A stretch of DNA of 64,000 nt from Lysobacteraceae bacterium (GCA_018970895.1 JAGWVM010000001.1:2289-66288); one strand, 5' to 3'; shown: positions 24,461 to 44,394, counted from the first letter of the stretch. The notes: generated by a model not told the origin, from the letters alone. Numbers and translations are program-made.

Positions 24461-25237
24461 TCAATGCGTGGCGCTCAGTCGACGGTAGGCGCGCTCGAGC
24501 TTGCCATCGTAGTCGTTGTCCCGATAGCCGACGCCGTTATAGCGACTTGCGAACGACGACCAGCGCCTGTTCCTCAGTGCGTCGAGCATGGCCTCGTCGG
24601 ATTTCACGAAACGGGCGAATGCCTCGAGGTGATTGGCTTCGGATCGGCTGAGCGCAAGCACGAACCACTGGACCGACGGGAAACCCGCTGCATGAAAGTT
24701 CTTGCCCATGATCTGGAAACGCCCCCACGACGCCGACTGCAGGGCGGCGGTCGGGGCGAGGCGATACGCCTTTTCGAGCTTCGGGTACTGCGAGGAAAAC
24801 GTGCCGTAGCCACCGCGCAGCGCATTGGAAATGTCGGGGTGGGTGTGGTCGAAACGGCCCTGGGTCAGGCGATGGAAGTAGCGCCGCTCGAACAGGATGC
24901 GCGGCCTCCCTTCGTTGTCGAAGGCCTTGCCGGACGTTTCCACTTCGGCCACCGCCCGGATGACCGCAACGTCCACGCCGAGCGCCATGGCCGCCCGCGC
25001 GTAGCTCTGCGGGCCCAGACCCTGTTTCGGGGCGAGGCACATGCGGAACAGGAATGAGACATCCGGCTCGGCGGTGGCCGGCAGCGGCACGGCGTGCAGG
25101 CATTGGGCAGGTCCCGTCCAGGCTTGCGAGCGCATCGCGCGCGGAGCGCGGCACATCGGAGCGGACGCCGCATGGCTCGCGTCGAGCGGGAGCGCCATGC
25201 CCGTGAACACCGGAAGAGCGGAGCATACGTTGGACAT
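24461..25237 (-). CDS. N-acetylmuramidase family (DUF3380/PF11860-like) peptidoglycan hydrolase; start uncertain (25237 or 25042)
   Basis: AVAEVETSG, GRPRILFE, SASWGRFQIMG, W..FA.RYNG.GY..N.YD.KL motifs; track ORF 24461..27364 is an antisense over-extension. Confidence 0.88.
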   Translation of the reverse strand: MSNVCSALPVFTGMALPLDASHAASAPMCRAPRAMRSQAWTGPAQCLHAVPLPATAEPDVSFLFRMCLAPKQGLGPQSYARAAMALGVDVAVIRAVAEVETSGKAFDNEGRPRILFERRYFHRLTQGRFDHTHPDISNALRGGYGTFSSQYPKLEKAYRLAPTAALQSASWGRFQIMGKNFHAAGFPSVQWFVLALSRSEANHLEAFARFVKSDEAMLDALRNRRWSSFASRYNGVGYRDNDYDGKLERAYRRLSATH

Positions 25238-25453
25238 GCTGGATTCCCTGCATTGCCGGCCACGGCCGGGAACATCGCGGCGGTCACTCCGGACCGGCCG
25301 GCACCCGGCGCGCCGTCGCCTGCCCGGTCGGCGAAGTGTACGCGCCGCCGAGCAGCGGAGCATGCGGCCAGCCGGCTTGCGCGCCGGTCGTGCGCCAGCC
25401 ATTGCTGCAACGCCCCGGGTGGCGGCTGCCGCGTGGACCCGGAGACCGGCCCG

Positions 25454-28090: not shown

Positions 28091-29434
28091 GTGTCGTCGA
28101 TTCCTACCCTGCTCCTGGCGGTCACCGGCGTCCACGCGGCGCAGTTCGGTGCGCGTGGCCAGAAGGCGTTCGAAGGACGCGACGGCAGCATCGGTCGCTC
28201 GGAGGATTGCGACTGGGTGCTGAGTGCGTCGGGCGTGTCGCGCGTGCACGCGATGATCCGCTGCCTCAATGGCATCTATTTCATCGAGGACCGCAGCACC
28301 AACGGCATGCTGCTCAACGGGGTGCCGCTGGTGAAGGGCGAGCCGTCGGCGCTCAAGCATGGCGACCGCCTGCAGATCGATACCTTCGAGGTATCCGTGA
28401 GCGTGCAGCCGGCCGGTGCGGCGCCAGCTCCGGCCGCGCCGATGCCTCCGGCGCCGCAGGACGTGTTCTCCACCTCGCCGCTGCCGCCGGCCGCCCCGAT
28501 GCCGATGGGGCGCGACCTGCTGGACGACTTCCTCGATCTGGGGCCAGGCCCGGGCTCCCGGCCGCCGGCCGATGCCGGGCTGATCCCCGACCCGGTGGCG
28601 CCGGCCGGGGGCTCGCTCGATCCGCTGAGTTTCCTCGACGAGCCGTTCGCGCCGTCGCCGTCTCCCGCTGCACCGTCGCCGGACTGGAACCACACGCCGG
28701 GCGTCTCCGACCACTTCCGGCCGCCGTTGCCGGAAGGCCAGCGCGCCGCCCAGATGCTGCCGGAAAACTGGGATCTGACCGTGGGCGACTTCGGCGCGCC
28801 GGCGGCATCGACGCCGGTTCCCGACCCGGCGCCTTCTCCAGTGCCGGCCCCGCCGCCCGCCGCCTGGACACCGCCGGCACCGGCTCCCGCATCCGGGCCG
28901 ACCGGTGCTGCGATGCCGGCCGACATCCAGCAGATGCTTTCCATCGTGGTCGACGGCGTGATGGACGTGCTGCGCGCACGCGCGGAGATCAAGAACACCT
29001 TCCGCCTGCCGGTGACGATCATCCAGCGCTCGGAGAACAACCCGCTGAAGTTCGCCCCGAACGCGGACGAGGCGCTGCAGAAGATCCTCTCGCCACCGAA
29101 CGCCGCGTTCCTGTCCGGGCCTTCCGCGTTCGACGACGCCTTCGACGACATCCGCTGTCACCAGATGGCGATGCTTGCCGGCGTGCGCGCGGCGTTCGAG
29201 TCGCTGCTGGCGCATTTCAGCCCCGACCGCTTCGAGCAGGAGTCCGACGGTGGCAAGCGCCCGGCGTTCGCCGGCAAGGGGCGCTACTGGGAAAAGTACC
29301 GCGAGCATTTCGAAGGGCTGGCCAAGAATCCCGACGAATGCTTCCGCCGCCTGTTCGGCGACGAATTCGCGCGGGCCTACGAAGAACAGCTGGCGCGCCT
29401 GAAGTCGGCGCGCCGCAACGCCGCACGGCGATGA
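28091..29434 (+). CDS. tagH: T6SS FHA-domain protein (TagH/Fha)
   Basis: GSIGRSEDCDWVL, VSRVHA, DRSTNGMLLN; Pro-rich linker; ENNPLKF, HQMAMLAG, LFGDEFARAYE; GTG after GAGGAG. Confidence 0.93.
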   Translation: MSSIPTLLLAVTGVHAAQFGARGQKAFEGRDGSIGRSEDCDWVLSASGVSRVHAMIRCLNGIYFIEDRSTNGMLLNGVPLVKGEPSALKHGDRLQIDTFEVSVSVQPAGAAPAPAAPMPPAPQDVFSTSPLPPAAPMPMGRDLLDDFLDLGPGPGSRPPADAGLIPDPVAPAGGSLDPLSFLDEPFAPSPSPAAPSPDWNHTPGVSDHFRPPLPEGQRAAQMLPENWDLTVGDFGAPAASTPVPDPAPSPVPAPPPAAWTPPAPAPASGPTGAAMPADIQQMLSIVVDGVMDVLRARAEIKNTFRLPVTIIQRSENNPLKFAPNADEALQKILSPPNAAFLSGPSAFDDAFDDIRCHQMAMLAGVRAAFESLLAHFSPDRFEQESDGGKRPAFAGKGRYWEKYREHFEGLAKNPDECFRRLFGDEFARAYEEQLARLKSARRNAARR

Positions 29435-29459
29435 CATTTCAGACACGGGCATCGATCCG

Positions 29460-30797
29460 ATGACGCAAAACAACAAGGTGGTTTGGAGCGAAGGCCTGTT
29501 CCTGCGGCCGCAGCACCTGCAGCAGAACGAGCGCTACCTGGAGCGCTTCGTCGAGCTGCGCGCCGGTGCGCTGCGGCCGTACAGCTTCGGCTTCACCGAG
29601 CTGGAACTGGAAGCCGACCTGCTGGCGGTCGGCAAGCTCGGCATCAAGCGGGCGCGCGGCGTGCTGCCCGACGGCACGCCGTTCGCCATGCCGTCCGATG
29701 ATCCGCTGCCGCCGCCGCTGGAGGTCGACGCGAACTGGCGCGACCAGACCATCTACCTGACCCTGCCGCTGCGCTCGCCGACCCAGCCGGACAGTGGCCG
29801 GCCCGAGGCGCCGGCGGAGAAGCTGTTCCGCTTCCGCGTGCGCGAGGCCGAGGTGCGCGATGCCTCCGGCAGCACCGATGGCACCGCGGTGCTCGAGGTC
29901 GGCGGCATGACCAGCCGGCTGCTGCCCGAGTCGCAGCCGCTGGAAGGCCTGACCCGCCTGCCGTTGGCACGCATCGTCGAATGCCGCTCGGATCGCCGGG
30001 TGATGCTGGACGAGGGCTTCATGCCGACCGGCCTGCGCTGCGAGGCGGTGCCGCGGCTGGTGACCTTCCTCACCGAGCTGCTCGGTCTGCTGCACCAGCG
30101 TGGCGAGGCACTGGCCAGCCGCGTGGCGCTGACCGATCGCGGCGGCGCGGCCGAGATCGCCGACTTCCTGCTGCTGCAGGTGGTCAACCGCTACCAGCCG
30201 CTGGTCGCCCACCTGGCCGAGGCGCCGCTGGCGCACCCGGAGGAGCTGTACCGGCTGATGGTGGCGATGGCCGGCGAGCTGGCCACGTTCACCGCGCCGG
30301 GCAAGCGGCCGCCGGCGTTCCCGGCGTATCGCCACGAGGCGCTGCGCGAGAGCTTCGAGCCGGTGATCGCCGCGCTGCGCGCCAGCCTGAGCGCGGTGAT
30401 GGAACAGACCGCGCTGGCGATCCCCCTGCAGCAGCGCAAGTTCGGCGTGTGGGTGGCGGTGGTGCCTGATCTGTCGCTGCTGGACACCGCTGCCTTCGTG
30501 CTGGCGGCCAAGGCCGACCTGAAGTCCGAGGAGCTGCGCCGGCAGTTGCCGGCGGTTTCCAAGATCGGCCCGGTGGAGAAGATCCGCGACCTGGTGAACC
30601 TGCAGCTGCCGGGCATCGGGCTGACGCCGATGCCGGTGGCGCCGCGGCAGATTCCCTACAACGCGGGCTACCTGTACTTCGAATTCGACCGGCACTCGGC
30701 GATGTGGCGGGAGCTGAAGACCTCAGGCGGCATCGCGTTCCATTTCGGCAGCGAGTTCGCCGGACTCGATCTGCAACTGTGGGCAATCAGGGGTTGA
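29460..30797 (+). CDS. tssK: T6SS baseplate protein TssK
   Basis: KVVWSEGLFLRPQHLQQ, GVLPDGTPF, PVAPRQIPY, LQLWAIR. Confidence 0.97.
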   Translation: MTQNNKVVWSEGLFLRPQHLQQNERYLERFVELRAGALRPYSFGFTELELEADLLAVGKLGIKRARGVLPDGTPFAMPSDDPLPPPLEVDANWRDQTIYLTLPLRSPTQPDSGRPEAPAEKLFRFRVREAEVRDASGSTDGTAVLEVGGMTSRLLPESQPLEGLTRLPLARIVECRSDRRVMLDEGFMPTGLRCEAVPRLVTFLTELLGLLHQRGEALASRVALTDRGGAAEIADFLLLQVVNRYQPLVAHLAEAPLAHPEELYRLMVAMAGELATFTAPGKRPPAFPAYRHEALRESFEPVIAALRASLSAVMEQTALAIPLQQRKFGVWVAVVPDLSLLDTAAFVLAAKADLKSEELRRQLPAVSKIGPVEKIRDLVNLQLPGIGLTPMPVAPRQIPYNAGYLYFEFDRHSAMWRELKTSGGIAFHFGSEFAGLDLQLWAIRG

Positions 30798-30801
30798 GCG
30801 C

Positions 30802-32172
30802 ATGAATACGCCGAATGGTTCCGGCCAGCCGCCCGGTTATCCGCCGGTGCCCGACGACGCCACCATCGTGCGTCCGCGCGGCAGCCAGCCTCCTGCACCG
30901 GCGCCCGCGCCCTACGCACCTCCGTCGGTGGCCCCGGCGCATGCGTCTGCACCCACGCCCCCACCGTCGGCGCCGCGGGCCGACATCAGCGAGTTCCTCG
31001 GCGGCGGCATGAACCCGCTGGTGCAGGCTGCCGCGCCGCTGCTGCTGCTGGGCGTGCAGTTGCGTCACAGCGTGTCGCCGCCCGATGCCACGCGCCTGCG
31101 CGAGCAGGTGACCACCCAGGTGCGCCGCTTCGAGAGCCACGCCAATGCCGCCGGCCTGCCGGTGCAGACGGTCACCGCCGCGCGCTACGTGCTTTGCGCG
31201 ATGCTGGACGAATCGGTGCTCAATGCGCCGTGGGGCGAGCAGAGCGGCTGGGCGCAGAAGACCCTGCTGGTGACCTTCCACGGCGAGTCCTACGGCGGCG
31301 CCAAGTTCTTCCAGATCCTCGAGCGGCTGTGCGCCGACTTCAGCCGGCACATCGACCTGATCGAGCTGATGTACCTGTGCCTGGCACTGGGCTTCGGCGG
31401 GCGCTACCAGATCGAGGCGGGCGGGCGCGCCAGGCTGGCCGACATCCAGGAAGACCTCTACCGCCGGATCAAGGCGCAGCGCGCACCGGCCGCCGACGAG
31501 CTGGCGCCGCACTGGCGCGGCATCGAGGACCGGCGCAATCCGCTGATCCGCTACGTGCCGCTGTGGGTGATCGCCGCCGCGGCCGCCTGCGTGCTGCTGG
31601 TGGCGTTCCTGTTCTTCTACACTCGGCTCAACACGCTGTCCGCGCCGGCCAGCGCGCAGATCGCGCAGATCGGTCTGGAGAGTGCCACGCCGCCGGACAC
31701 CACGCGCCTGAACCAGGCCACGCCGCCGGCGCCGCACAAGACGCTGAAGGAACTTCTGGCACCGGAGGCCCAGGCCGGCCGGCTCGAGGTGATCGACCAG
31801 AGCGACCGCAGCGAGCTGGTGCGCCTGAGCGGCTCGGACATGTTCGCCTCCGGCGGCGTGGACGTGAGCGCCGCGGAGATTCCGCTGCTGCACAAGATCA
31901 CCGCCGCGCTGAACCAGGTGCCGGGGCGGGTGATCGTGGTCGGCCACACGGACGACCAGCCGATCCACTCGCTGCGTTTCAAGGACAACTTCGAGCTGTC
32001 CGCGGCGCGCGCCCGCGCGGTGGTGCAGATCCTCGCCCAGGGGCTGGACAATCCGGCGCGACTGGAATCCAGCGGCGCCGGCTCGTCGCAGCCGATCGCA
32101 CTGCCGCCGAACCTGCCGGCCAACCGCACGCGCAATCGCCGCGTCGAAATCAAGTACATCCCGGAGGGCTGA
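30802..32172 (+). CDS. tssL: T6SS membrane protein TssL (DotU) with C-terminal OmpA-like peptidoglycan-binding domain
   Basis: NPLVQAA, YVLCAMLDESV, GGAKFFQ, ELMYLCLALGF; TM; GHTDDQP, LSAARA, NRRVEI. Confidence 0.95.
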   Translation: MNTPNGSGQPPGYPPVPDDATIVRPRGSQPPAPAPAPYAPPSVAPAHASAPTPPPSAPRADISEFLGGGMNPLVQAAAPLLLLGVQLRHSVSPPDATRLREQVTTQVRRFESHANAAGLPVQTVTAARYVLCAMLDESVLNAPWGEQSGWAQKTLLVTFHGESYGGAKFFQILERLCADFSRHIDLIELMYLCLALGFGGRYQIEAGGRARLADIQEDLYRRIKAQRAPAADELAPHWRGIEDRRNPLIRYVPLWVIAAAAACVLLVAFLFFYTRLNTLSAPASAQIAQIGLESATPPDTTRLNQATPPAPHKTLKELLAPEAQAGRLEVIDQSDRSELVRLSGSDMFASGGVDVSAAEIPLLHKITAALNQVPGRVIVVGHTDDQPIHSLRFKDNFELSAARARAVVQILAQGLDNPARLESSGAGSSQPIALPPNLPANRTRNRRVEIKYIPEG

Positions 32173-32176
32173 GCTC

Positions 32177-35100
32177 GTGAAGAAGGTGCTTTCCCTGCTC
32201 AAGTCCGGCGGGTTCATCGCCCTGGTCGGCCTGCTGTTGCTGTCGCTGCTGATCTGGCTCGGCGGTCCGTATCTCGGCATCGGCGACAGTCAGCCGCTGG
32301 CCAGCCCGGTGACACGGCTGGTGGTGATCATCGTGCTGCTGGTGATCTGGGGCGTGGTGCTGCTGATCCAGCAGATGCGCCTGCGCAGCAAGACCGCGCA
32401 GATGTCCGGCGACCTGGCCCAGCAGGACGGCAGTACCGCCGCGCCGGCGCCGGCCGGCGACGATCGCAGCGCCAGCGAGCGCGCCCAGCTGGCCTCGCGC
32501 TTCCAGGAGGCGGTGGACACGCTGCGCAAGCGCCGCCAGGGCGGCGGCAACCTGTACACGCTGCCGTGGTACGTGGTGATCGGTCCGCCCGGCTCGGGCA
32601 AGAGCACGCTGCTGCAGAACTCGGGACTGAACTTCCCGTTGTCCGATCGCTTCGGCAAGGAGGCGCTGCGCGGCATCGGCGGTACCCGCAACTGCGACTG
32701 GTGGTTCACCGACGAGGCGGTGTTCCTCGACACCGCCGGCCGCTACACCACGCAGGATTCCGACCGCCAGGCCGATGCCTCGGCCTGGGGCGAGTTCCTC
32801 AAGCTGCTGCGCAGGTACCGCAAGCGTCGGCCGATCAACGGCGTGCTGATCGCAATGAGCCTGTCCGACCTGCTGGTGCTGGACGAGAACGCCCGGCAGG
32901 AACACGTGCAGGCCGTGCGCCGGCGCCTGGACGAACTGGCCGAGCACCTGCGCATCGGCGTACCGGTGTACCTGGTGCTGACCAAGTGCGACCTGGTGGC
33001 CGGCTTCAGCGAATTCTTCGACGACCTTTCGCCGGAGCTGCGCAGCCAGGTCTGGGGCATGTCGTTCCCGGTCGCCAGGACCATGGACGGCAGCGCCGCC
33101 AAGGCGTTCGCCGACGAGTTCCAGCGGCTGCTGGACCGGCTCAACACGCGGGTGCTCGAGCGCGTGCACGCCGAACCGGATCGCATGCACCGTGCGGCGA
33201 TCCTGTCGTTCCCGCAGCAGCTGGCGGCACTGCGCGACGTCGCGCGCCAGTTCGTCGAGGGCGTGTTCGCACCGAACCCGTACGGCAGCCCGACGCTGCT
33301 TCGCGGTGTCTATCTCACCTCCGGTACGCAGGAAGGCACGCCGATCGACCGCATGATGAGCGCGGTGGCGCGCACCTTTGGCGTCGACGCGACGCGCGTG
33401 CAGGCCAAGGGCGCCCAGCAGCGCACCTTCTTCGTCGAGCGGCTGCTCAAGGACGTGCTTTTCAGGGAGTCCGGTTTCGCCGGCACCAACCCGAAGCTGG
33501 AGCGGCAGAAGATCCTGCTGCAGGCAGCGGCCTACACTGGCGTGCTGCTGCTGACCGGCCTGCTGTTCGCCGGCATGGCGATCAGCTACGGCCGCAACCG
33601 CACGTATCTGGACAATGTGCAGAAGGCGCTGGCTGCCTATCCGGCGAAGACCTCGCTGGACGACGCGCCGACCCAGAAGGCCTATTTCGCGCTGGTGCTC
33701 GAACGGCTGGAGGGGCTCGGTGCGGTCAGCGGCGTGGCCGAGCAGTACCGCAGCCACGTGCCCTGGCTGATGCGTTTCGGGCTGTACCAGGGGCATGCCG
33801 TCGGCAGCGAGGTGCACGATGCCTACCTGCGCGAACTCAACGGGCTGCTGTTGCCCGGAGTGGCCTCGCAGTTCCGCGCCGGGCTCAGCGCCAGTGCCGG
33901 CGACCCGCAGGCGCTGTACTACTACCTCAAGGGTTACCTGATGCTCGGCGAGCCGAAGCATCGCGACCCCGGCCAGCTGGTCGCGCTGACCGACCTGGAG
34001 TGGCCGAAGGTGTTCCCCGGCGATACCGTGCTGCAGGACGCGATCGCCAAGCACTTCAAGGCGCTGGTGGGCGAGCCGGACCGGATGCGCGCCATCGGGC
34101 TGGACAAGGATCTGGTAGAGCAGGCGCGGGCGACCCTGCGCACCGCCGATCTGTCGTCGCTGGTCTACGGCAGCATGAAGCTGTCGGGCGCGGCCTCCGA
34201 TGCCCCGCCGCTGCGGCTGGACAAGGCGCTGGGCCTGCTCGGCAACGTGTTTCGCCGCAGGAGTGGCACGCCGCTGTCGTCGCCGCTGCCGGCGCTGTTC
34301 ACCCAGCCGGTGTTCGCCGCGGAGGTGGACAAGGGCATCGCCGAGGCGGTGGACGACTTCGCCAAGGACGACTGGGTGTTCGGTGCCAGCGGCATCGACG
34401 CGATCGGCAAGGCGCGCCTGCAGCAGCAGGTGCTCGGGCTTTACCAGAGCGATTACATCAAGGCCTGGGACGACCTGCTGAATGACCTGGAACTTCAGCC
34501 CATCGCCAGCATCCAGGACGCCAGCGCGATCGCCGCCAAGCTGGCCGGCCCCAGCTCGCCGCTGAAGGCGCTGCTCGGCGTGGTGCGCGACAACACCCAC
34601 GACATGCTGCGTGCGCCGCCCGAGGGCGGTGCGGACAAGGCACTGGCCGCGGCGAAGAAGGCGGCCGGAAAAAAGGCGGCGCAGAGCGCACTGAGTCGCG
34701 CACTGGCCGCCGCGGCGGGCTCGGCGCCGGCGGCGCCGGCGGCCAAGCCGGGCGATGCGATCAGCGCCCACTTCGACGCGCTGGACAAGCTCAGCGAGGG
34801 GGCGCCGGGTGCGGCGCCGATCGACCAGACGCTGGGGGTGCTCGATCAGCTCAGCAAGACCCTGTTGACGATGACCGACTTCAGCAATGCCGCCGGCCAG
34901 CCCAATCCGCAGCTGCTGCTGGCGCAACAGGCCGCGGCGCAGCTGCCGCCGCCGGTGTCCGGCTGGGTGGCGTCGCTCACCGGCAAGAGCCAGGCGCTGG
35001 TGGCCAGCGGTACCAAGGGGGCGCTGGGCGACCAGTTCCAGCAGGCGGTGGCGAAGGACTGCGCCGACTTCACCCGGGGACGCTATCCGTTCGATCCGAA

Positions 35101-35707
35101 CGGCCGCTCGGAGATTCCGCTGCAGAACTTCTCCGAGCTGTTCGGCTACGGCGGCGAGTTCGACGGCTTCTACAAGCAGACGCTGGAGAAGCTGGTCGAC
35201 GCCAGCGGGCGCACGTGGAAATGGAAGGACGGCCCGGGTGCGGTCAGCGGGCCGCCCGGCATGCTGGCGCAGATGCAGCGCGCCGATGCGATCAAGCAGG
35301 CGTTCTTCCGCAACGGCAGCCCGACCCCCGAGGTCGGCTTCACCTGGATGGGGCCGCAGCTCGATGCCGGCATCGGCAGGCTGGTGATCCAGGTCGACGG
35401 GCAGAAATTCGATTACGCGCCCGGTGGCGCGACCAGTGCGACGATGAAGTGGCCCGGACCGCAGCCGGGCCAGGTCTCGGTGAGCGCCTACGACACCGCC
35501 GGCAACCTGATCAGCAGCGTGGACTACCAGGGCGACTGGGCCTTCTTCCGCGCCCTGCAGGCAGCGCACCTGACCCGGCAGTCGGATCTGCGCTACACCG
35601 CCACCTTCCGCTTCGGCAGCCAGAGCGCCCGCGTGACGTTGCAGGCGGCCAACCTGAAGAACCCGTTCCTCGATTCCGACGTACAGCGCTTCCGCTGCGG
35701 AGGTTGA
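32177..35707 (+). CDS. tssM: T6SS membrane complex protein TssM (IcmF)
   Basis: LPWYVVIGPPGSGKST, RNCDWWF, DTAGRY, RGVYLTSGTQEG, GDWAFFR. Confidence 0.97.
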   Translation: MKKVLSLLKSGGFIALVGLLLLSLLIWLGGPYLGIGDSQPLASPVTRLVVIIVLLVIWGVVLLIQQMRLRSKTAQMSGDLAQQDGSTAAPAPAGDDRSASERAQLASRFQEAVDTLRKRRQGGGNLYTLPWYVVIGPPGSGKSTLLQNSGLNFPLSDRFGKEALRGIGGTRNCDWWFTDEAVFLDTAGRYTTQDSDRQADASAWGEFLKLLRRYRKRRPINGVLIAMSLSDLLVLDENARQEHVQAVRRRLDELAEHLRIGVPVYLVLTKCDLVAGFSEFFDDLSPELRSQVWGMSFPVARTMDGSAAKAFADEFQRLLDRLNTRVLERVHAEPDRMHRAAILSFPQQLAALRDVARQFVEGVFAPNPYGSPTLLRGVYLTSGTQEGTPIDRMMSAVARTFGVDATRVQAKGAQQRTFFVERLLKDVLFRESGFAGTNPKLERQKILLQAAAYTGVLLLTGLLFAGMAISYGRNRTYLDNVQKALAAYPAKTSLDDAPTQKAYFALVLERLEGLGAVSGVAEQYRSHVPWLMRFGLYQGHAVGSEVHDAYLRELNGLLLPGVASQFRAGLSASAGDPQALYYYLKGYLMLGEPKHRDPGQLVALTDLEWPKVFPGDTVLQDAIAKHFKALVGEPDRMRAIGLDKDLVEQARATLRTADLSSLVYGSMKLSGAASDAPPLRLDKALGLLGNVFRRRSGTPLSSPLPALFTQPVFAAEVDKGIAEAVDDFAKDDWVFGASGIDAIGKARLQQQVLGLYQSDYIKAWDDLLNDLELQPIASIQDASAIAAKLAGPSSPLKALLGVVRDNTHDMLRAPPEGGADKALAAAKKAAGKKAAQSALSRALAAAAGSAPAAPAAKPGDAISAHFDALDKLSEGAPGAAPIDQTLGVLDQLSKTLLTMTDFSNAAGQPNPQLLLAQQAAAQLPPPVSGWVASLTGKSQALVASGTKGALGDQFQQAVAKDCADFTRGRYPFDPNGRSEIPLQNFSELFGYGGEFDGFYKQTLEKLVDASGRTWKWKDGPGAVSGPPGMLAQMQRADAIKQAFFRNGSPTPEVGFTWMGPQLDAGIGRLVIQVDGQKFDYAPGGATSATMKWPGPQPGQVSVSAYDTAGNLISSVDYQGDWAFFRALQAAHLTRQSDLRYTATFRFGSQSARVTLQAANLKNPFLDSDVQRFRCGG

Positions 35708-35711
35708 GGCC

Positions 35712-37346
35712 ATGCCGAATCCGACAGGGGGGATGACGGCATCGGTGGGGTTCTTCGGCAAGCTGCCGGGTGCCGGGGATTTCGTGCAGCGGCGGCTGCC
35801 CGGCGATTTCGTCGAGCGCTGGGACCGGCACTTCGAGCATGCGGTGGCGGCCAGCCGGGAGCGGCTCGGTGCCAGCTGGCAGGAGCGCTGGTTCGCCAGC
35901 CCGGCCTGGCGCTTCGTGCTGGCGCCGGGCGTCTGCGGCGAGTCGGCCTGGGCCGGCGTGATGGCCCCGGCTGCGGACCGGGTCGGTCGCTGTTTTCCGA
36001 TGGTGATGGCCGCACCGCTGGGCCGGGATCCGGCAGCCTGCCCGCGCACGCTGCGCGAGGCGCAGCGCTGGTTCGACGTACTCGAGGTGGCGCATGCCGA
36101 AGCGCGTCGGCAGGCGTGGGGCGCGGATGCCTTCGACGCCCGTCTGGCCGTGCTGCCGGGACCGCAGGAGGTCACCCGCAGCGATCCGTCGGCCGCGCTC
36201 GCCGGGATCGACTGGCGTGGCGCCGCGCAGTGGCGGATGCCGCTGCGGGTGCACGGTCACGACGAGCGCTTTCTCGAGGTGCTGTGGTCGCAGCTGGCGG
36301 CCACCGGTCCTGGCTGGTGCCTGTGGTGGACGCATGGCGCCGCGATGGTGCCGGCCAGTGCGATGGCGACCCATGGTTTGCCTGCGCCGGCGGGCTTCGC
36401 CGCGTTCCTCGATGCGGGGCAGGGCGAAGAGGGCTGGCATACCCTGCGCTCGTTCGCGCCGGGGGCGAGCGCCGGCACCGCTGCGGTGCCGGTCGCAGCC
36501 GCGCCGGTCGCGGCGCCGATGGCACCACCGTCACCATCGCCGCCCGTCGCGCCGCATGTCGACAGCGAAACCACCGCATCCCGCGCACTGGCCGACAGCG
36601 CCGCGCCGGTGCCTGACGACGTGACCGTGCCGGGCTTCGGCCGCGGTGCCGCGGAGGCTGCGTCCGCACCACCCGCCGAGCCCGCTGCGTCTGCGGCCGC
36701 ACCGGCACGCGGCACAGTGTATCGGGGTGCGGAAGGTGCCCTCACCGTGCTCGCCGCCGATGACGGCGCACACGACAGCCGCTGCCGCGCCGCCGCCACG
36801 GCACAGGCGGTCGCGGCGGCGATGGCGCCGGGCGAGTTCTCCGGCGGCATGCATCTGCTGCGTGAGCGATTGCTGGCGCGGCACCCGGCGTTGCAGGCGT
36901 CGGGCGAGGACCTGATCGACCCGGTGATGGAGGACGCCGCCGTGGTGGCGTTGCACACCACCGGACGCTGGGCGGCGGTACTGCGCATGGGAACCGCCGA
37001 GGTGTGGCAGTGGCGGCGTGGGCAGATGCGCCCGGTGTTCGCCGGCGATGCCGCATCCACCGGTGCCGGCGTCGACACCCTGCTGGGTGCCCGTCGCGGT
37101 GCCGTAGCCGTGGGGCTGGGCGGATCCGGGAAGCCGGAGGCAGAGGACATCGTCTGCGCGGTGGAGCCGGGTGACCGCTTCCTGCTGCTGGCCACGCGGC
37201 GCCTGATGGGGCTGGATCAGGCGCTGCTCGCCCGCGCGCTGGCGATGCCGGACCCGGCACAGGCACGTGCCCATATTGCCCAGGCGACGGCGCTCGGTAC
37301 CGATCCCGCCCCCTGGCCACTGGCCGTCATCGAGGTGGACGCATGA
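35712..37346 (+). CDS. tagF: TagF fused via Pro/Ala linker to a degenerate PP2C-like domain
   Basis: N-terminal GFFGKLPGAGDFV, PAWRF, DRVGRCFP; C-terminal PP2C-like topology without the metal-binding Asp motifs. Confidence 0.88.
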   Translation: MPNPTGGMTASVGFFGKLPGAGDFVQRRLPGDFVERWDRHFEHAVAASRERLGASWQERWFASPAWRFVLAPGVCGESAWAGVMAPAADRVGRCFPMVMAAPLGRDPAACPRTLREAQRWFDVLEVAHAEARRQAWGADAFDARLAVLPGPQEVTRSDPSAALAGIDWRGAAQWRMPLRVHGHDERFLEVLWSQLAATGPGWCLWWTHGAAMVPASAMATHGLPAPAGFAAFLDAGQGEEGWHTLRSFAPGASAGTAAVPVAAAPVAAPMAPPSPSPPVAPHVDSETTASRALADSAAPVPDDVTVPGFGRGAAEAASAPPAEPAASAAAPARGTVYRGAEGALTVLAADDGAHDSRCRAAATAQAVAAAMAPGEFSGGMHLLRERLLARHPALQASGEDLIDPVMEDAAVVALHTTGRWAAVLRMGTAEVWQWRRGQMRPVFAGDAASTGAGVDTLLGARRGAVAVGLGGSGKPEAEDIVCAVEPGDRFLLLATRRLMGLDQALLARALAMPDPAQARAHIAQATALGTDPAPWPLAVIEVDA

Positions 37347-38062
37347 CCGATCGCTACGTTTCGGCGGGACTCACGGTGACCGGCAAGGTCCGTCGCCACA
37401 ACGAGGATGCGATCCTGGTGCGCGACGACCTGGGCCTCTGGGTGGTGGCCGACGGCATGGGTGGGCACTCTGCCGGCGACTATGCCAGCGCGCTGATCGC
37501 GCAGCGGCTCGGTGCGCTCAGCCGCAGCGGCAGCGTGTTCGATTTCATCGAGGCGATCGAGGATGCGCTGGAGCAGGCCAACGCCGACCTGGTCGCGATG
37601 GCGCGCACGCGCGGGGTCGACATCATCGGCTCCACCGTGGTCGTGCTGGTTCACCACCCCGACTACATGCTGTGCGGCTGGGTCGGCGACAGCCGCGCCT
37701 ACTGCATGGAAGCCGGCGTGCTCGAGCAGGTCAGCCGAGACCACGTGCACGGGATGAAGGACGACGTGACCCAGTTCGGCGGTGCCTCCGCGGCGCCTTC
37801 GCCCGGTGCCGGCGTGCTGACCCGGGCGATCGGTGCGGAAGATCGGCTGTTCGTCGACTGGCAGGTCGCCGGTTGCCGGCCCGGCATGCAGTTCGTGCTG
37901 TGCTCGGACGGCATCAACAAGGAAATGAGCGACGCCGAGATCGCCGCCGCCTGCCAGCGGCAGGGCGATCCCCAGGGCGTGCTCGACGATCTGCTCGGCC
38001 TGGCCCTGGGCCGGGCCGGCCGCGACAACGTGTCGGCCGTCGTCGTGCGGCTGCAGGACTGA
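37343..38062 (+). CDS. pppA: PP2C Ser/Thr phosphatase PppA
   Basis: [34 protein letters not shown]. Confidence 0.93.
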
Positions 38063-38075
38063 CGACCCCCTCTCC

Positions 38076-41000
38076 ATGAATTTTCTCAACGAACTCATCG
38101 CTGCCCTGCAAGCGGACAAGCTCCAGCTGTCCACGCTGCTGCACATCCTCGGATCGCGCGGTGCGCAGCCGGAACCCGTCCATCGCGAAGAAGTGGCCCT
38201 GCTCGAGCGGCTGGCCGTCGAGGGCGCGCTGTCCCCGGAGGTGACCCGGACGCTGCTCGGCGAACTCCAGCGCCAGCAGGCCACCACCGGCCGGGCGACG
38301 ACGGCGGCTGATGACGCCACCGTGGTCCACGCCGGCAGCGGAGCCGGCGATGCCACCGTGGTGCAGGCGCGGGCGGACGATGCCACTCTGGTGCAGCCGA
38401 CCGCCGGCGGCGCCGGTGCGCACGACGCGGATGCGACGGTGGTGCAGCCGTCGGCGACGCCGGCCGGTCATCCGCACGACGACGAGGCGACGGTGGTCAA
38501 GCCGTCTTCCTCGCCGCGCGGCAGCGACACCCAGGCCACCGGCGTCACCGGCCGCACCGGAACCACCGGGGCCACCAGCAGCACCTTCAATGCCGACAGC
38601 TGGCAGCGCATGTCCGCGGCCGAAGGGGGCGACTACGCCGCGGTAGGCAGCGTGCTCAAGGGACGGTTCCACCTGGAGAAGGAGATCGGCCGCGGCGGCA
38701 TGGGCGTGGTGTTCCTGGCGCTGGACGAGCGCAAGGTGGAGGCGCGCGACCGCGACCCGTACGTGGCGGTGAAGGTGCTGAACGACGAGTTCCGCCGCCA
38801 TCCCGATTCGCTGATCGCGCTGCAGCGCGAGGCCCGCCGCTCGCAGTCGCTGGCGCACGACAACATCGTGCGCGTCTACGACTTCGACAAGGACGGCACC
38901 ATCGTCTTCATGACGATGGAGTACGTGGACGGCTCCGACCTCAAGGCGCTGATTCGCGAGAAGGCCTACAACGGCATGCCGCTGGCCCGGGCGCGGCCGC
39001 TGATCGAGGGCATGGCCTGGGCGCTCAAGCGCGCGCACGCCGCCGGCGTCGTGCACTCGGACTTCAAGCCCGGCAACGTCATGGTGACCCGCGACGGCGT
39101 GCCCAAAGTGTTCGACTTCGGCATTGCGCGCGCCGGCAAGCACCTGGGCGAGGCCACCGGCGAGGAGACCGTGTTCGATGCCGGCACGCTGGGCGCACTC
39201 ACCCCGGCCTACGCCAGCCTGGAGATGATCCAGGGCAAGGAACCCACGCCCAGCGACGACATCTACGCGCTGGGCTGCGTGGCGTTCGAGCTGCTCACCG
39301 GCAAGCACCCGTTCGACAAGGTCAGCGCCGAGGTGGCGATGCGCGAGGGGCGCAAGCCGCCGCCGGTGCCCGGGCTGACCAAGCGGCAGTACCAGACCCT
39401 GTGTGATGCGGTCGCCTTCACCAGCGACAAGCGCCTGAAGCATGCCGCCGACCTGGTCGAGGGCCTGCGCGAGATCAGCCTGCGTGAGCGCGCCGGACCG
39501 GTCGTGGTGGTCGGCGCGATCGGCGTGGTGATCCTCGTCGCCGGAGGCTGGGGCGTGCGCCACTACCTGCAGCAGCGCGAGGTGGACGAGGTGGTCGCGC
39601 GCTTCGCGCCGACCGATCCGCAACACTTCACCACCGAAGACCAGGCGCTCGGGGCGCTGAATGCACTGGGGGCCGACCAGCGCACCCGCGTGGTGAGCGA
39701 CCAGAGCGACCTGATCCAGACCTTCCTGCTCGGTCGCGTCGATGCCTACTGGAACCCGGGCAGGCAGCGCTATGACTACGCCGGCGCGCAGCACGTGTTC
39801 AGCCTGCGCGACCGGCTCAAGCTGTTCTCGCCCAAGCTCGACCTCAAGCGCACGGCGATCGAGCAGGAGCGCAACGACCTGCTCAACCAGCTCGACACGC
39901 GCCTGAGCAAGGCGATCGAGAACGGGGCGATCTTTGCCGACCAGCCGGACAACGCGGTGCGGATCCTCGCCACGATCCGCGCCATCGACCCGACCAGCGG
40001 GCTGCTGAAGAACGCCGAGCTGGAACTCAAGTACGACATCGCGATCGGCCGGTCGATCGCCGCCAATCATGCCGCCGAGGCGCAGGCGCAGCTGAAGCAG
40101 GCGCTGGCGGTATTTCCCGATTCGACGCGGCTGCGGCAGCGCGCCGCGGAGCTGGCGCAGATGGCCCCCGCGGCGCTCGCCCGCGGCCCCGCCGGGTCCG
40201 GGCAGACCGTGCCGCAGGCGCATCGCGCGCTCGCCGACCTGATCGCCCGGCCCACCCTCGACGCATCGTGGCAGGCGGCGGTCGGCCAGGCGCTGGCAAC
40301 GCTCGCACCGGCGCACGATGCGCAGACGCCGGCGCAGGTCGATGCGCTTGCCGCAGCGATCGCCGGTGCGGTGGCCGGCCAGAACGACCCCAGCCAGTTG
40401 CCGCTGGCATCGCGTGCGGTCGACCTGGGCCTGCAGTACGCGCCGAAGTCGGCACCGCTGCTGGCCCAGCGCAGCCGTCTCGATGCCCTGCAGCAGCAGG
40501 TGCAGGCGCAGCTCGCGCAGGAGAGCGCCGCGGCCGAGGTCACCTCGCGCATCGAATCGATGAAGCGCGCCGCCGCCGCCAACGACGTGGCCAAGGCGCA
40601 GGAAGCGCTTGCGCGCATTCGCACCCTGCAGCCGGACAACGCCTTCCTGGCCGGCGAAGGTCCGCAACTGCTGGCCAGTGCCTATCTCGGCCAGGCCACC
40701 GATGCGGCAAGGCGCGGTCGCTTCCAGGTCGCCGCGGACACGCTGGCGCGCGGGCTCAAGGCGCTGGGCAACCGCGACGACCTGCGCCAGGCCCGGGCCC
40801 GCTACGACCTGGTCGCCGACCTGATGAAGGCGCGCAGCGGCGGTGCATCGGCGGATGACCTGGCGAGGATGCACCAGCAGCTGGCGCGGCTGCAGCGCGA
40901 CGACCCGGACGGGCTGAAGTCGCTGGAGTCCGACCTGAAGCTGCACGGGCAGCTCGCCCAGGGCAGCCTGTCGGCGCTGCTGGACACGCTGAAGCCGAGT

Positions 41001-41822
41001 CAGCCGCCCGCGTCCGGTTCGTCGACTCCCGGCAATGTCGCCACGGCGCCCACGGCGGCGGAGGCGCCGGCGGCGACCCCGTCCGGCAGTCCGTCGCGTC
41101 CGGGAGCCGTCGCCGCGCCGGCTGCCACGACACCGGCCAGCGGCAAGGCCGTCGCCGGCAAGCCGGGGACGACCGCCGCGGCCGGGTCCGGCGGCGATCC
41201 CTGCGGCGACCCGGCGCTGGTCGGCAAGGGGCGGATCTGCGCCGACGAGGTGGCAGGCAAGCGCGGTCCGCCGCTGGTGGTGATTCCCGCCATCGCAGGG
41301 GGGCGGCCGTACGCGATGTCCCGCACCGAGATCAGCATCAGCGAGTTCAACCGCTTCTGCAGCGCTACCGGCCAGTGCGCGCCGCGACCGGCCGGCGATC
41401 GCCTCACCGCCACCCAGCCGGTGAGCAACATCCCGCTGTCGCTTGCGAGGGCGTACACCGCCTGGTTGAGCAAGGGCAGCGGGTTCACCTACCGCCTGCC
41501 CACCGACGCCGAATGGCTGCATGCGGCGAAAGCGGGCGGCAACTGGAAGCAGTCGCCGGACAGCAACTGCGTGCCGCCCAGCGCCAACGGCGACGACGGC
41601 AGCGGTGCGCCGATCTCGTCGCTGGGCCGCAGCCCCAACCCGTGGGGCCTGGTCAACCTGACCGGCAATGTGTGGGAGTGGGTGGTCAGCGGCGGTCAGG
41701 TGGGCGTGCGTGGTGCCAGCTACACCAGCTACTGGTCCGACTGCACGGTCGACGCGCATCGCGCCGACAGCGGCAAGGCCCAGAACGACGTCGGATTCCG
41801 CGTGCTGAGGGAGCTCAGATGA
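38076..41822 (+). CDS. ppkA: T6SS Ser/Thr kinase PpkA with periplasmic helical region and C-terminal FGE-sulfatase (SUMF1)-like domain
   Basis: IGRGGMGVV, VAVK, HSDFKPGN, DFG, YASLE; TM; RLPTDAEW, PNPWGLVNLTGNVWEW, GFRV. Confidence 0.92.
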   Translation: MNFLNELIAALQADKLQLSTLLHILGSRGAQPEPVHREEVALLERLAVEGALSPEVTRTLLGELQRQQATTGRATTAADDATVVHAGSGAGDATVVQARADDATLVQPTAGGAGAHDADATVVQPSATPAGHPHDDEATVVKPSSSPRGSDTQATGVTGRTGTTGATSSTFNADSWQRMSAAEGGDYAAVGSVLKGRFHLEKEIGRGGMGVVFLALDERKVEARDRDPYVAVKVLNDEFRRHPDSLIALQREARRSQSLAHDNIVRVYDFDKDGTIVFMTMEYVDGSDLKALIREKAYNGMPLARARPLIEGMAWALKRAHAAGVVHSDFKPGNVMVTRDGVPKVFDFGIARAGKHLGEATGEETVFDAGTLGALTPAYASLEMIQGKEPTPSDDIYALGCVAFELLTGKHPFDKVSAEVAMREGRKPPPVPGLTKRQYQTLCDAVAFTSDKRLKHAADLVEGLREISLRERAGPVVVVGAIGVVILVAGGWGVRHYLQQREVDEVVARFAPTDPQHFTTEDQALGALNALGADQRTRVVSDQSDLIQTFLLGRVDAYWNPGRQRYDYAGAQHVFSLRDRLKLFSPKLDLKRTAIEQERNDLLNQLDTRLSKAIENGAIFADQPDNAVRILATIRAIDPTSGLLKNAELELKYDIAIGRSIAANHAAEAQAQLKQALAVFPDSTRLRQRAAELAQMAPAALARGPAGSGQTVPQAHRALADLIARPTLDASWQAAVGQALATLAPAHDAQTPAQVDALAAAIAGAVAGQNDPSQLPLASRAVDLGLQYAPKSAPLLAQRSRLDALQQQVQAQLAQESAAAEVTSRIESMKRAAAANDVAKAQEALARIRTLQPDNAFLAGEGPQLLASAYLGQATDAARRGRFQVAADTLARGLKALGNRDDLRQARARYDLVADLMKARSGGASADDLARMHQQLARLQRDDPDGLKSLESDLKLHGQLAQGSLSALLDTLKPSQPPASGSSTPGNVATAPTAAEAPAATPSGSPSRPGAVAAPAATTPASGKAVAGKPGTTAAAGSGGDPCGDPALVGKGRICADEVAGKRGPPLVVIPAIAGGRPYAMSRTEISISEFNRFCSATGQCAPRPAGDRLTATQPVSNIPLSLARAYTAWLSKGSGFTYRLPTDAEWLHAAKAGGNWKQSPDSNCVPPSANGDDGSGAPISSLGRSPNPWGLVNLTGNVWEWVVSGGQVGVRGASYTSYWSDCTVDAHRADSGKAQNDVGFRVLRELR

Positions 41823-42210: not shown

Positions 42211-42318
42211 TTACTCAGGAGGGGCGTTCGGAAGGGGCTGCACGCGCACTCCGTTCGCCGCCACGGGGCGGGTCCACCGTACCCGGTGCCGGCAGCCTCA
42301 TTGCAGGGGGACAAACAC

Positions 42319-44394
42319 GTGCGGATGGCGACACTGGCAGCAGCCCTGGCGCTGGCATTGGCTGGCGGGCGGGCATGGGCGCAGGACAACCCGCCTGGCC
42401 CGACGGCACCGGCGAGCCGGGCGAGTCCGTCTCCCCCGGTGGCCCCGGCGCAGCGGATCCTGGTCAGCGGCATGCCCGCCGGCGGCGATGCCGCCGCGGC
42501 GCAGGCGATCGTGCAGGCGGGCTACCGGCAGGCGATGGCTGCCGCCGGCCATCCGGCGACGTTGAGCCCGGCGCAGTGGCAGGCCGCCGCCGATGCCATC
42601 ACTGCAGCCTTGCGCCGGGCCGGATTCAAGGATGCCCGTGCCTACCCGGCCGAGCAGGTGATGGCCTTCACCGTGCAGGACGTGCCGGCCGGCGCGGCCG
42701 GCGCGGTCGCGCAACAACCGTCGCCGCCGCCACCGGCGCAAACGGCACCGGACCGCGCAGCGACGGCCGTGCCGGCACTCGCCACGACACCGCCGCTCCC
42801 CGCCAACGTGCTTCCACCGGTCCGCGAGCGCACGCAGGCCTCGACGCAGACCGTGGCAGTCAGCGCGTTCCGGGTTAGGGGTGTCGGCGCGCACCCGGAT
42901 GCCGGGATCACCCCGGCGTCGATGCAGGCGCTGGCGGACGAGCAGCTGCACAAGCTCGGTGCAGCCGGCCAGCCCGCGCGACTCGATTTCGCCCAGCTGC
43001 AGCAGGTGGCCGACACCCTGACCGAGACCTATCGCAAGGCCGGCTTCATCTTCGGCACAGCGTTCCTGCCGGCGCAGACGATCGGACCGGACCAGGTGGT
43101 CGATATCCAGGTGCTCGAAGGCACCCTGGGACGGGTCATAGTCAAGGGCAACAAGCGCTACCGGGCCCGTGCGATCGCGGCATCGGTGGAGCCGCTGAAG
43201 GGCAGGGTGCTGCGCAAGGGCGAGGTCGATTCGGCGCTGCTCTACGCGCGCGAGCTGCCGGGCGTGTCGGTGAGCTCGACCTTCCAGCCGGGCGAGAAGA
43301 CCGGCCAGACCGACCTGCTGATGGTGGCCAACGAGGCGAAGCGGCCTTACACGATCACCACCGGCGCGAACAACTACGGTACCGATCTCACCGGTCGCTA
43401 TCGCGCCCAGCTAGGCGTTACCTGGAACAGCCCGCTGGGCATCGGCGACAGCTTCGCGGCCAACGTCGACTATGCGATGGACCCGCGCAACAACGTCTAC
43501 GGCTCGCTGGTGTACCGCGCGCCGACGCTGGTGGTTCCGGGGCTCAGCGGCGTGATCGGCGCGACCCGCAGCGAGCTGCAGCTCAACTCCAGCCAGCTCG
43601 CCGCGCTCAACGTGAAGGGGCCAAGCTCTTCGCAATACGCTGGTGCCGACTGGAAGTTCGTCAACACCGACACGATGCAGATGCAGGCCACGCTGCACTA
43701 CATCCGCGAGAAGTCGCGCCTGACCAGCCTCGGCATCCCGCTGTCGGACGAGAGCTTCGACGTGGCCGAGCTGGCCTGGGCGATGAATCGCACCGACCAG
43801 CGCCTGCACGGCATCGATCTGCTGCAGGTGAGCCTGCGCAAGTCGATCAAGGACCGCTCGCGCGAGCCGGATCTGGTCAGCCCGAACCATGCCCGCAGCT
43901 TTACCAGCCTGCGCTTCTCCTACACGCGCCTGCAGTTCCTGACCAAGTCGCAGCGCGCCTACTTCAAGCTGGCCGGACAGTGGACCAACGCCGCGCTGGC
44001 GCCGCTGGAGCAGTTCGTGATCGGCGGCCCGGACAGCGTGCGCGCCTATCCGATCGCCGACGGCCTGACCGACCGCGGCTATTACGCCTCGCTGGAATAC
44101 CACGTGGACGCGCCGGGCTTTGGCAACAGGATCTCGCCGTTCTACGCGCGACCCTGGCGCGAGCTGCTGGAGCTGGAAGCATTCGTCGATTACGCCCGCG
44201 GCATGCCGGCCGGTGCGGACCGCGCGGGCAACAGCGTGCTGACCTTCAAGGGCGTCGGCGCCGGCTTCATCTTCCGCCTGCCGCGATTCCACCGCTTCGA
44301 GTTCCATCTCGACGGCGCGGTGCCGGTCGGCGGACCGCAGGCCTCGGACAAGAAGGGCTACCACATCTACGCGCGCTTCGGCTTCACGTTCTAG
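42319..44394 (+). CDS. Two-partner secretion transporter TpsB (ShlB/FhaC/HecB family)
   Basis: Signal peptide, POTRA domains (YRKAGF...FLPAQ...VLEG), beta-barrel, F.IGGPDSVRAY (VRGY-like loop 6), terminal FGFTF. Confidence 0.93.
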   Translation: MRMATLAAALALALAGGRAWAQDNPPGPTAPASRASPSPPVAPAQRILVSGMPAGGDAAAAQAIVQAGYRQAMAAAGHPATLSPAQWQAAADAITAALRRAGFKDARAYPAEQVMAFTVQDVPAGAAGAVAQQPSPPPPAQTAPDRAATAVPALATTPPLPANVLPPVRERTQASTQTVAVSAFRVRGVGAHPDAGITPASMQALADEQLHKLGAAGQPARLDFAQLQQVADTLTETYRKAGFIFGTAFLPAQTIGPDQVVDIQVLEGTLGRVIVKGNKRYRARAIAASVEPLKGRVLRKGEVDSALLYARELPGVSVSSTFQPGEKTGQTDLLMVANEAKRPYTITTGANNYGTDLTGRYRAQLGVTWNSPLGIGDSFAANVDYAMDPRNNVYGSLVYRAPTLVVPGLSGVIGATRSELQLNSSQLAALNVKGPSSSQYAGADWKFVNTDTMQMQATLHYIREKSRLTSLGIPLSDESFDVAELAWAMNRTDQRLHGIDLLQVSLRKSIKDRSREPDLVSPNHARSFTSLRFSYTRLQFLTKSQRAYFKLAGQWTNAALAPLEQFVIGGPDSVRAYPIADGLTDRGYYASLEYHVDAPGFGNRISPFYARPWRELLELEAFVDYARGMPAGADRAGNSVLTFKGVGAGFIFRLPRFHRFEFHLDGAVPVGGPQASDKKGYHIYARFGFTF

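Follow-up and report, generated by a model that had tools for sequence, protein, structure and literature searches.

The 64,000-nucleotide stretch of DNA analysed here (Lysobacteraceae bacterium, GCA_018970895.1, JAGWVM010000001.1:2289-66288; hereafter the window) contains a complete gene cluster for a type VI secretion system (T6SS), in which the Hanks-type kinase PpkA and the membrane-complex protein TssL share a short threonine-centred motif well beyond chance. This motif, designated here as the threonine box, is present in five copies ahead of the PpkA kinase domain and in one copy in the N-terminal tail of TssL, and a partial form of it is found in a linker of TagF. Near-identical proteins in the databases bear names that assign the window to Dyella (family Rhodanobacteraceae). 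Judged from the sequence and its context, the PpkA and TssL boxes are probably phosphorylation sites that dock the scaffold protein Fha (also designated as TagH).

A threonine box common to PpkA and TssL

The initial annotation of the window had quoted seven box strings, five in PpkA, one in TssL and one in TagF, and all seven are found in the sequence. The PpkA array (38310-38504; this and all other features of the T6SS cluster given below lie on the + strand) follows the pattern D-(D/E)-A-T-(V/L)-V and is centred on Thr82, 94, 104, 121 and 139 of a disordered pre-kinase linker. It consists of box 1, DDATVVH (aa 79-85, 38310-38330), box 2, GDATVVQ (aa 91-97, 38346-38366), box 3, DDATLVQP (aa 101-108, 38376-38399), box 4, DADATVVQP (aa 117-125, 38424-38450), and box 5, DDEATVVKP (aa 135-143, 38478-38504). 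The TssL box, PVPDDAT21IVRPRG (aa 15-27, 30844-30882), is located in a Pro/Ala-rich tail ahead of the DotU domain (aa 72-273), with T21 about 50 residues N-terminal to this domain. At position +3 (counted from the Thr) the residue differs between the sites, being Q/K, or H in box 1, in PpkA, R in TssL and G in TagF; in PpkA and TssL it is of the long polar or basic kind with Pro at +4, unlike in TagF.

In the whole genome (70% G+C), the string DAT[VIL]V occurs in 19 of 17,659 six-frame open reading frames (ORFs), and more than one copy is present only in PpkA. For a quantitative comparison, a scoring matrix with 12 columns was built from 50 non-redundant PpkA boxes of orthologues from other genomes, the window being excluded, and was applied to the 47,685 Thr residues of a proteome proxy of this genome, filtered by the G+C content at third codon positions (GC3). 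Ranks 1-6 were taken by the five PpkA boxes and the TssL box, the latter being fifth overall and first outside PpkA. The D-D-A-T-(V/I/L)-V motif that the initial annotation had assigned to all three proteins is thus borne out for PpkA and TssL, whereas TagF possesses its N-terminal half only (Val at -1, Pro at +2; rank 81). Further top matches (C116, C253, the KdpA-like C21 and the PutA-like C70) were rejected as boxes, as they lie upstream of likely starts or within folded or membrane proteins. The genome encodes four Hanks kinases and three FHA matches in total, and high-scoring boxes are confined to the T6SS cluster.

Architecture of PpkA and location of the array

PpkA (38076-41822; Pfam Pkinase 6.7e-37, FGE-sulfatase 6.6e-20) consists, in this order, of a helical N-domain, the box array, a Hanks kinase domain, a transmembrane segment, a periplasmic TPR-like region and an FGE-sulfatase domain, and its orthologues are named 'bifunctional serine/threonine-protein kinase/formylglycine-generating enzyme' in the databases. 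It is unusual in having ~195 residues ahead of the kinase domain. The first of these form a four-helix domain (aa 1-72, 38076-38291; helices 3-12, 18-28, 33-48, 54-72), which was modelled by AlphaFold2 (AF2) with a predicted local distance difference test score (pLDDT) of 80-89 and has no match to any Pfam family at E<=1. A similar N-terminal stretch, judged by eye, can be found in distant gammaproteobacterial PpkA-like kinases (loci L047, L049, L054, L065, L074, L126, L127). The following residues, aa 72-201, which hold the array, had pLDDT values below 40 in the AF2 model based on a 31-sequence alignment, that is, no structure.

The kinase domain (38667-39485) possesses the G-loop GRGGMGVV, the beta3 Lys in VAVKVL, the catalytic loop HSDFKPGN and the DFG motif, and its catalytic residues are intact and invariant in the alignment of 31 homologues. 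Also invariant in these 31 proteins is the non-RD character of the catalytic loop (aa 327-334, 39054-39077). In the activation loop, GEET365VFDAGT (aa 360-371, ~39150-39185), the near-invariant T365 stands in an acidic-acidic-T-V-F context that resembles the boxes. The single transmembrane segment (~aa 471-495, from the hydrophobic window) lies C-terminal to the kinase domain; by topology, the box segments of PpkA, TssL and TagF are all cytoplasmic.

Some relatives (L032-L034 and L040, in genomes G001-G003 and G015) encode a second, shorter kinase of ~700-750 aa without the FGE domain between pppA and ppkA. This paralogous protein shares the helical N-domain, carries 2-3 boxes and shows ~60% identity to aa 1-600 of PpkA; the genome of the window does not possess it.

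Conservation of the boxes in close relatives

Of the 15 loci fetched from the genus and its sister genera, 13 share the gene order Fha-TssK-TssL-TssM-TagF-PppA-PpkA; of the other two, L043 is without an Fha match and L044 is a contig fragment of 5.8 kb. The PpkA orthologues of these loci, as well as the second paralogous kinase of some genomes, all carry 2-5 boxes of the form [DE][DE]ATVV[QK]P, separated by spacers of varying length and sequence. Similarly, each of the 31 database homologues of PpkA with the N-terminal module has 1-5 boxes, and the final one reads nearly always [DE]EAT[VIM]VKP. D119, T121 and V141 are invariant in these proteins, and conservation is 90% or higher at D80, A81, T82, V122, V123, D136, T139 and P143. 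Overall, conservation amounts to 74-100% in the box cores, to 0.93 on average in the kinase domain and to 0.66 in the folded N-domain. Box 2 (GDATVV) is present in only ~10% of the homologue rows, which suggests that it is a recent gain and that the arrays win and lose copies.

As to the TssL box, D-A-T-[VI]-V-R-P-[RH]-G was found in ~118 of 121 Rhodanobacteraceae TssL clusters, mostly at Thr16-21. The central residue is Thr in all 92 PpkA boxes, in all 118 TssL boxes of Rhodanobacteraceae and in 39 of the 40 TssL boxes found class-wide (with one doubtful Ser among the 40). In the class-wide TssL tails Ser is more frequent than Thr (225 vs 176), yet the centre of the box is Thr. Such a Thr-only centre fits the specificity of FHA domains for phospho-threonine (pThr) that was noted in the Agrobacterium study (Lin et al. 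2014, PMC3953482).

Boxes in other Gammaproteobacteria

For a class-wide survey, 400 gammaproteobacterial genomes were sampled and 80 TssL loci were fetched. In loci bearing a gene for Fha, TagF, PppA or a kinase, the TssL tail has a box nearly always, typically as DDPF...D-x-D-[RK]-T-[VI]-[IVF]-[RK]-P-x-P-G-G and often twice. Two boxes are present in the TssL tails of L057, L061, L063, L067, L069, L071, L073, L074 and L085, and three (DDKTRL, EEPTLIRP, DDATVFRP) in that of L122 (genome G136), so multivalency is not restricted to the kinase. With a strict pattern, 29 loci with genes of the threonine phosphorylation pathway (TPP) were box-positive and nine box-negative, vs 0 of 41 positive loci without TPP genes; five of the nine negative loci have looser forms (e.g., DDKTVIL). 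Fha is encoded in 32 of the 38 sampled loci having any TPP gene. The box persists in TssL tails that are otherwise unalignable, at identities of the DotU domain of 35-55%, which points to selection.

The PpkA-like kinases of this lineage that are nearest to the Dyella protein possess an N-terminal extension with 2-7 boxes of the type D-[DE]-[KR]-T-R-[IVL] or D-A-T-R-[FI], and several of them begin like the Dyella N-domain. Some of the kinases lacking the extension have a box in the tail C-terminal to the kinase domain instead (e.g., SDRTVIMP, LEATLVRP). From these sequences, the array is a feature of a widespread PpkA subfamily, of which the Dyella variant (T-V-V-Q/K-P) is nearer to the TssL form. 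There are also clusters with a TssL box and PppA but with no kinase gene within 10 kb; in three of the five such genomes that were searched (G378, G243, G384), a close PpkA homologue (52-54% identity) with its own boxes is encoded elsewhere. Furthermore, TssL and PpkA of Rhodanobacteraceae both have Ala at position -1, and elsewhere both proteins mostly have Lys or Arg there. This parallel change, based on few events, is suggestive of a partner shared by the two proteins.

Presumed reader and eraser, and neighbouring genes

Fha/TagH (28091-29434), the presumed pThr reader, consists of an FHA domain, a Pro-rich linker and a T6SS_FHA_C domain (Pfam FHA 1.5e-18, T6SS_FHA_C 2.3e-51; NCBIfam TIGR03354 TagH, 343 bits vs a cut-off of 120). 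Its start is the GTG codon at 28091, located 3' of the ribosome-binding site AAGAGGAG. The ORF 28207-29463 was rejected as Fha, since it is out of frame and encodes Arg-rich nonsense, and the ORF of the 27719 frame with the GTG start at 28091 was taken instead. The FHA signature (28184-28306) comprises the G-R of GSIGRS (aa 32-37), S-R-V-H (aa 50-53) and S-T-N-G (aa 69-72); as read from the sequence, the pThr-binding residues (GR, SRVH, TNG) are thus retained. Agrobacterium Fha needs R30 and S46, the counterparts of the signature Arg and Ser found here (PMC3953482).

The linker of Fha has a conserved element of its own, LPENWDLT[VM]GDF, which is near-invariant in the family (ENWDLTVGDF at aa 225-234, 28763-28792). 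Its Thr was considered as a fourth box and rejected: it has rank 9050 of 47,685 on the matrix, and the element conserved class-wide is the core IP[ED][DN]WD, the following Thr being present only in a subset of the proteins. We regard this core as a separate linear motif.

PppA (37343-38062; Pfam PP2C_2 3.7e-14, PP2C 7.9e-9), the presumed eraser, is a PP2C phosphatase with intact motifs (NEDA, ADGMGGH, GDSR, CSDG, DN). Its gene overlaps the stop codon of tagF, and 13 bases separate its end from ppkA. TssL (30802-32172) is of the long form, with a DotU domain, a transmembrane segment and an OmpA-like domain (Pfam DotU 2e-71, OmpA 1.8e-9; also matched in NCBIfam). Besides these genes, the cluster includes those for VgrG (25094-27481), TssK (29460-30797), TssM (32177-35707) and TagF (35712-37346).

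A second Hanks kinase is encoded in the window at ~6075-8882 (within the ORF 5328-8882, + strand). It is of the RD type (HRDIKPAN), with a single transmembrane segment and an extended C-terminal part that is TPR-like; no threonine-box array was seen in it. This protein may act as a regulator of the PknS kind known from the T6SS cluster of Xanthomonas citri. Downstream of ppkA are genes for a ShlB/FhaC-type transporter of two-partner secretion (42286-44394, POTRA_2 and ShlB domains) and an ORF of 2945 aa (44674-53511).

The TagF linker box and the adjacent PP2C-fold domain

TagF (Pfam TagF_N 1e-38) is fused to a PP2C-fold domain. In the AF2 model, the TagF domain (aa 9-245) is connected to a confidently predicted C-domain (aa 334-544) through a disordered segment (linker, aa 246-333; pLDDT ~30), which holds the box PVPDDVT305VPGFGR (aa 299-311, 36606-36644; pLDDT likewise ~30). 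A Foldseek search with this model retrieved P. aeruginosa (Pseudomonas aeruginosa) TagF (6iz8, 1e-16), a PP2C phosphatase (2j86, 3.5e-10) and P. aeruginosa PppA (6jkv, 5.6e-9); the aligned ranges were not printed, and the TagF match was assigned to the N-domain and the PP2C matches to the C-domain via alignment lengths and Pfam. The C-domain (36711-37346) has no match to Pfam PP2C even at E<=1, and BLASTP against PppA found nothing, so that the relation to PP2C is seen at the fold level only. At the position of ADGMGGH in PppA it has ADDGAH, and an intact PppA is encoded directly downstream. Because of the missing Pfam match and the altered motif, the C-domain looks inactive and probably represents a dead phosphatase fused to TagF.

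The box itself departs from the PpkA and TssL pattern by Val at -1 and Pro at +2, and only its N-terminal half, PVPDD-x-T-V, is common with TssL; its rank among the 47,685 Thr residues is 81 with the full matrix and 7 with the N-side alone. DDxT[VL]PGF is invariant in the ~26 closest TagF clusters (>=58% identity) and is confined to a Dyella subclade. Most other long TagFs, from Rhodanobacter, Frateuria and further Dyella, do not possess it, and in 38 of 119 the linker is entirely devoid of acidic-x-T. The conservation in orthologues that the initial annotation had named as a check is seen for PpkA (31/31) and TssL (~118/121) but, in TagF, only within this subclade. Gene conversion between the TssL and TagF boxes was considered and rejected, as the agreement is limited to the PVPDD codons, where it is expected from the GC3 bias, and only 32 of 63 bases match overall.

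We consider it probable that the TagF box, taken alone, is an unrelated clade-specific linear motif, e.g. one that binds intramolecularly to the neighbouring, dead-looking PP2C-fold domain or that docks PppA, and that its likeness to TssL is a coincidence of acidic Pro-rich linkers. Its conserved core is T-[VL]-P-G-F rather than T-V-V-x-P, its distribution in the family is narrow, and the near-identity of the PVPDD codons is accounted for by codon bias. Moreover, in two species, TagF was reported to need no phosphorylation pathway for repressing the T6SS and for binding Fha (PMC5995506). On the other hand, the N-side PVPDD-x-T-[VI] is that of TssL and ranks 7th of all Thr contexts, Thr305 is invariant in the subclade, and Pro at +2 is enriched in the substrates of PknA/B from M. 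tuberculosis (Mycobacterium tuberculosis) (PMC7164672). That Thr305 is a third, clade-specific mark or a decoy seems to us doubtful.

Proposed function of the PpkA and TssL boxes

With PpkA intact, PppA, and Fha/TagH bearing the FHA signatures, the cluster holds a presumed writer, eraser and reader. Based on sequence and on analogy to characterized systems, we favour the interpretation that the boxes are pThr marks of the T6SS threonine phosphorylation pathway: PpkA would mark its own array and Thr21 of TssL, Fha would read these marks and PppA would reset them. In this pathway, PpkA would be activated via its periplasmic part and would phosphorylate Thr21 of TssL as well as, probably in trans between the subunits of a dimer, the Thr residues of its array. 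The phosphorylated boxes would then be read by Fha/TagH through its FHA domain. The multivalent array of the kinase could concentrate Fha at the membrane and hand it over to the single TssL box, which would dock it on the TssL-TssM membrane complex and let assembly start. Finally, PppA would erase the marks.

Several reports from other bacteria are consistent with such a role. The closest experimental precedent is Agrobacterium TssL, in which the peptide around T14, DLPpTVVEI, has to be phosphorylated to bind Fha and is needed for secretion (PMC3953482); the initial annotation had rightly pointed to this N-terminal TssL pThr that recruits Fha. TssL has been reported as a target of PpkA2 in V. 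alginolyticus (Vibrio alginolyticus) (PMC10482370), and, according to a review, P. aeruginosa TagH binds pThr on PpkA (PMC13584744). In A. citrulli (Acidovorax citrulli), kinase-dead PpkA binds Fha more weakly, and PpkA condensates recruit Fha and the cytoplasmic domain of TssL (PMC12607579). Furthermore, the substrates of Hanks kinases typically have an acidic N-flank (PMC7164672), as do the boxes.

A number of observations speak against this interpretation. In the P. aeruginosa phosphoproteome, PpkA-dependent peptides came only from PpkA and Fha1 (PMC13713981), and in S. marcescens (Serratia marcescens) Thr438 of Fha was called the sole target of PpkA (PMC6082577); hence TssL phosphorylation is not universal. 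The Agrobacterium TssL phosphopeptide binds Fha weakly, with a dissociation constant of ~1.6 mM (PMC3953482). The residue at pT+3, the usual selectivity position of FHA domains, is Q/K in PpkA (H in box 1), R in TssL and G in TagF. In a tree of DotU domains, the box-bearing TssLs form essentially one clade, leaving 4-5 independent contrasts (sign test, p=0.5); the co-occurrence of the TssL box with Fha is therefore a lineage trait rather than independent statistical evidence, and its co-occurrence with Fha and TPP genes was dropped as independent support. Finally, the initial annotation had proposed that one kinase consensus marks all the sites, which might let the proteins compete for the FHA domain. 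Such a single consensus is not evident, because the conserved linker Thr of Fha stands in a context unlike the box, and the consensus of the kinase and that of the FHA reader are inseparable here. The shared part of the motif may reflect the reader rather than the writer.

Other explanations of the PpkA and TssL boxes have to be weighed against phosphorylation and Fha docking. The boxes could be PpkA substrates with another role, the array serving as an autoinhibitory pseudo-substrate or timer and pThr21 altering the TssL-TssM conformation directly. The box-like, near-invariant activation loop GEET365VFD is in line with this, as is the non-RD (HSD) catalytic loop, with which regulation outside the activation loop is possible, and in Agrobacterium TssL phosphorylation triggers a conformational change of TssM before Fha is recruited (PMC3953482). 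However, multivalency and the exclusive use of Thr suit a reader domain better than the pseudo-substrate of an active site, Fha accompanies TPP genes in most of the sampled loci (32/38), and AF2 docked no box on the kinase domain, although this is weak evidence given the low pLDDT (<40) of the segment. On balance, a role other than docking appears unlikely.

We regard it as rather improbable that the boxes are short linear motifs acting independently of phosphorylation, in which T-V-V, as a short beta-strand, would pair by strand addition with a T6SS partner common to both proteins (such as the PpkA N-domain, TssK/TssM or a further part of Fha) and the Thr would be kept for structural reasons. 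A beta-branched T-V-V core followed by Pro is indeed typical of strand-addition motifs, the widely kept IP[ED][DN]WD of the Fha linker implies that the system uses non-phosphorylated linear motifs, and TssL boxes are also present where no kinase gene lies within 10 kb. Nevertheless, these kinase-less clusters have PppA, and the three genomes named above encode a boxed PpkA-like kinase elsewhere; the Thr is not swapped for Ser, Val or Ile in >200 boxes; the acidic N-flank matches the substrate preference of Hanks kinases (PMC7164672); and the homologous Agrobacterium peptide needs its phosphate for Fha binding (PMC3953482). A functionless, neutral low-complexity expansion of the PpkA repeats, to which the copy number of 1-5 and the recent insertion of box 2 in ~10% of the homologues could be attributed, is highly improbable and is contradicted by the conservation pattern: the box cores are conserved like the kinase domain while the spacers shift in length and sequence, and arrays of this kind, with another residue at -1, are found again in distant lineages.

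Comparison with known systems

The phosphorylation pathway as such is known already, and so is the principle that FHA domains dock on a pThr residue of either TssL or the kinase. As in the Agrobacterium PpkA-TssL pThr14-Fha switch, the Thr of TssL lies in a disordered N-terminal cytoplasmic tail, the next two residues are beta-branched or hydrophobic (DLPpTVVEI vs DDAT21IVRP), and genes for PpkA, for an FHA protein and for a fusion of TagF with a PP2C-fold domain are present in the cluster. Unlike in Agrobacterium, the kinase itself also bears five copies of the box. The T14 region was reported as unconserved outside Rhizobiaceae (PMC3953482), whereas a related box is present here across an Fha-bearing gammaproteobacterial lineage; the 8-mer of Agrobacterium, when padded, comes no higher than rank 125 on the Dyella matrix. 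The order of domains in TagF, a TagF domain followed by a PP2C-fold domain in one protein, is that of the Agrobacterium TagF-PppA fusion (Lin et al. 2018, PMC5995506). However, the fused domain of Dyella looks inactive, being without a Pfam PP2C match and having ADDGAH, a separate, intact PppA follows, and the linker carries the DDxTVPGF box.

The H1-T6SS of P. aeruginosa, with PpkA autophosphorylation, binding by the FHA domain of Fha1 and Thr362 of Fha1 as a site, likewise comprises a membrane Hanks kinase, a PP2C phosphatase, an FHA scaffold and the TagF repressor. Its PpkA differs in having an N-terminal kinase domain and another periplasmic domain, and the reported substrates are only PpkA itself and Fha1 (PMC13713981); neither an N-terminal box array nor a TssL site has been described for this system. 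In A. citrulli, the kinase acts upstream of Fha and its activity strengthens the binding between PpkA and Fha (Pei et al. 2025, PMC12607579), which resembles the situation proposed here. The kinase domain of this PpkA (catalytic D161/D179) is, in contrast, N-terminal, the mapped target is T640 of Fha, and no motif array was reported (PMC12607579).

Outside the T6SS, autophosphorylated Thr residues in flexible segments of the mycobacterial kinases PknB and PknA dock the FHA proteins GarA and FhaA. These kinases belong to another phylum and another process, and their sites are in juxtamembrane or activation segments and not in a repeated N-terminal array of fixed sequence. Acidic residues N-terminal to the acceptor Thr are, however, common to both (PMC7164672).

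In a literature search that included the motif strings, no paper was found on a defined box common to TssL and the kinase, on its N-terminal array in PpkA or on its spread in the Fha-bearing lineage. In the field, TssL phosphorylation is taken as a peculiarity of Agrobacterium and V. alginolyticus, and a sequence rule for writing by PpkA or reading by Fha is missing. Multivalent contacts between pThr and FHA domains would provide a simple physical basis for the reported clustering of PpkA and Fha at the membrane (PMC12607579). Tentatively, the threonine box could even be a general address code of Fha-dependent T6SSs, in which the kinase array would seed clusters or condensates of Fha where activation takes place, the TssL box or boxes would capture them for the membrane complex, and the TagF half-box would act as a decoy tuning the switch in the Dyella subclade. 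If the boxes should prove not to be phosphorylated, two core regulators would still have a strongly conserved linear motif in common. The conserved box of TssL and of the kinase array offers a concrete rule that can be tested with mutants and that predicts sites in many unstudied T6SSs.

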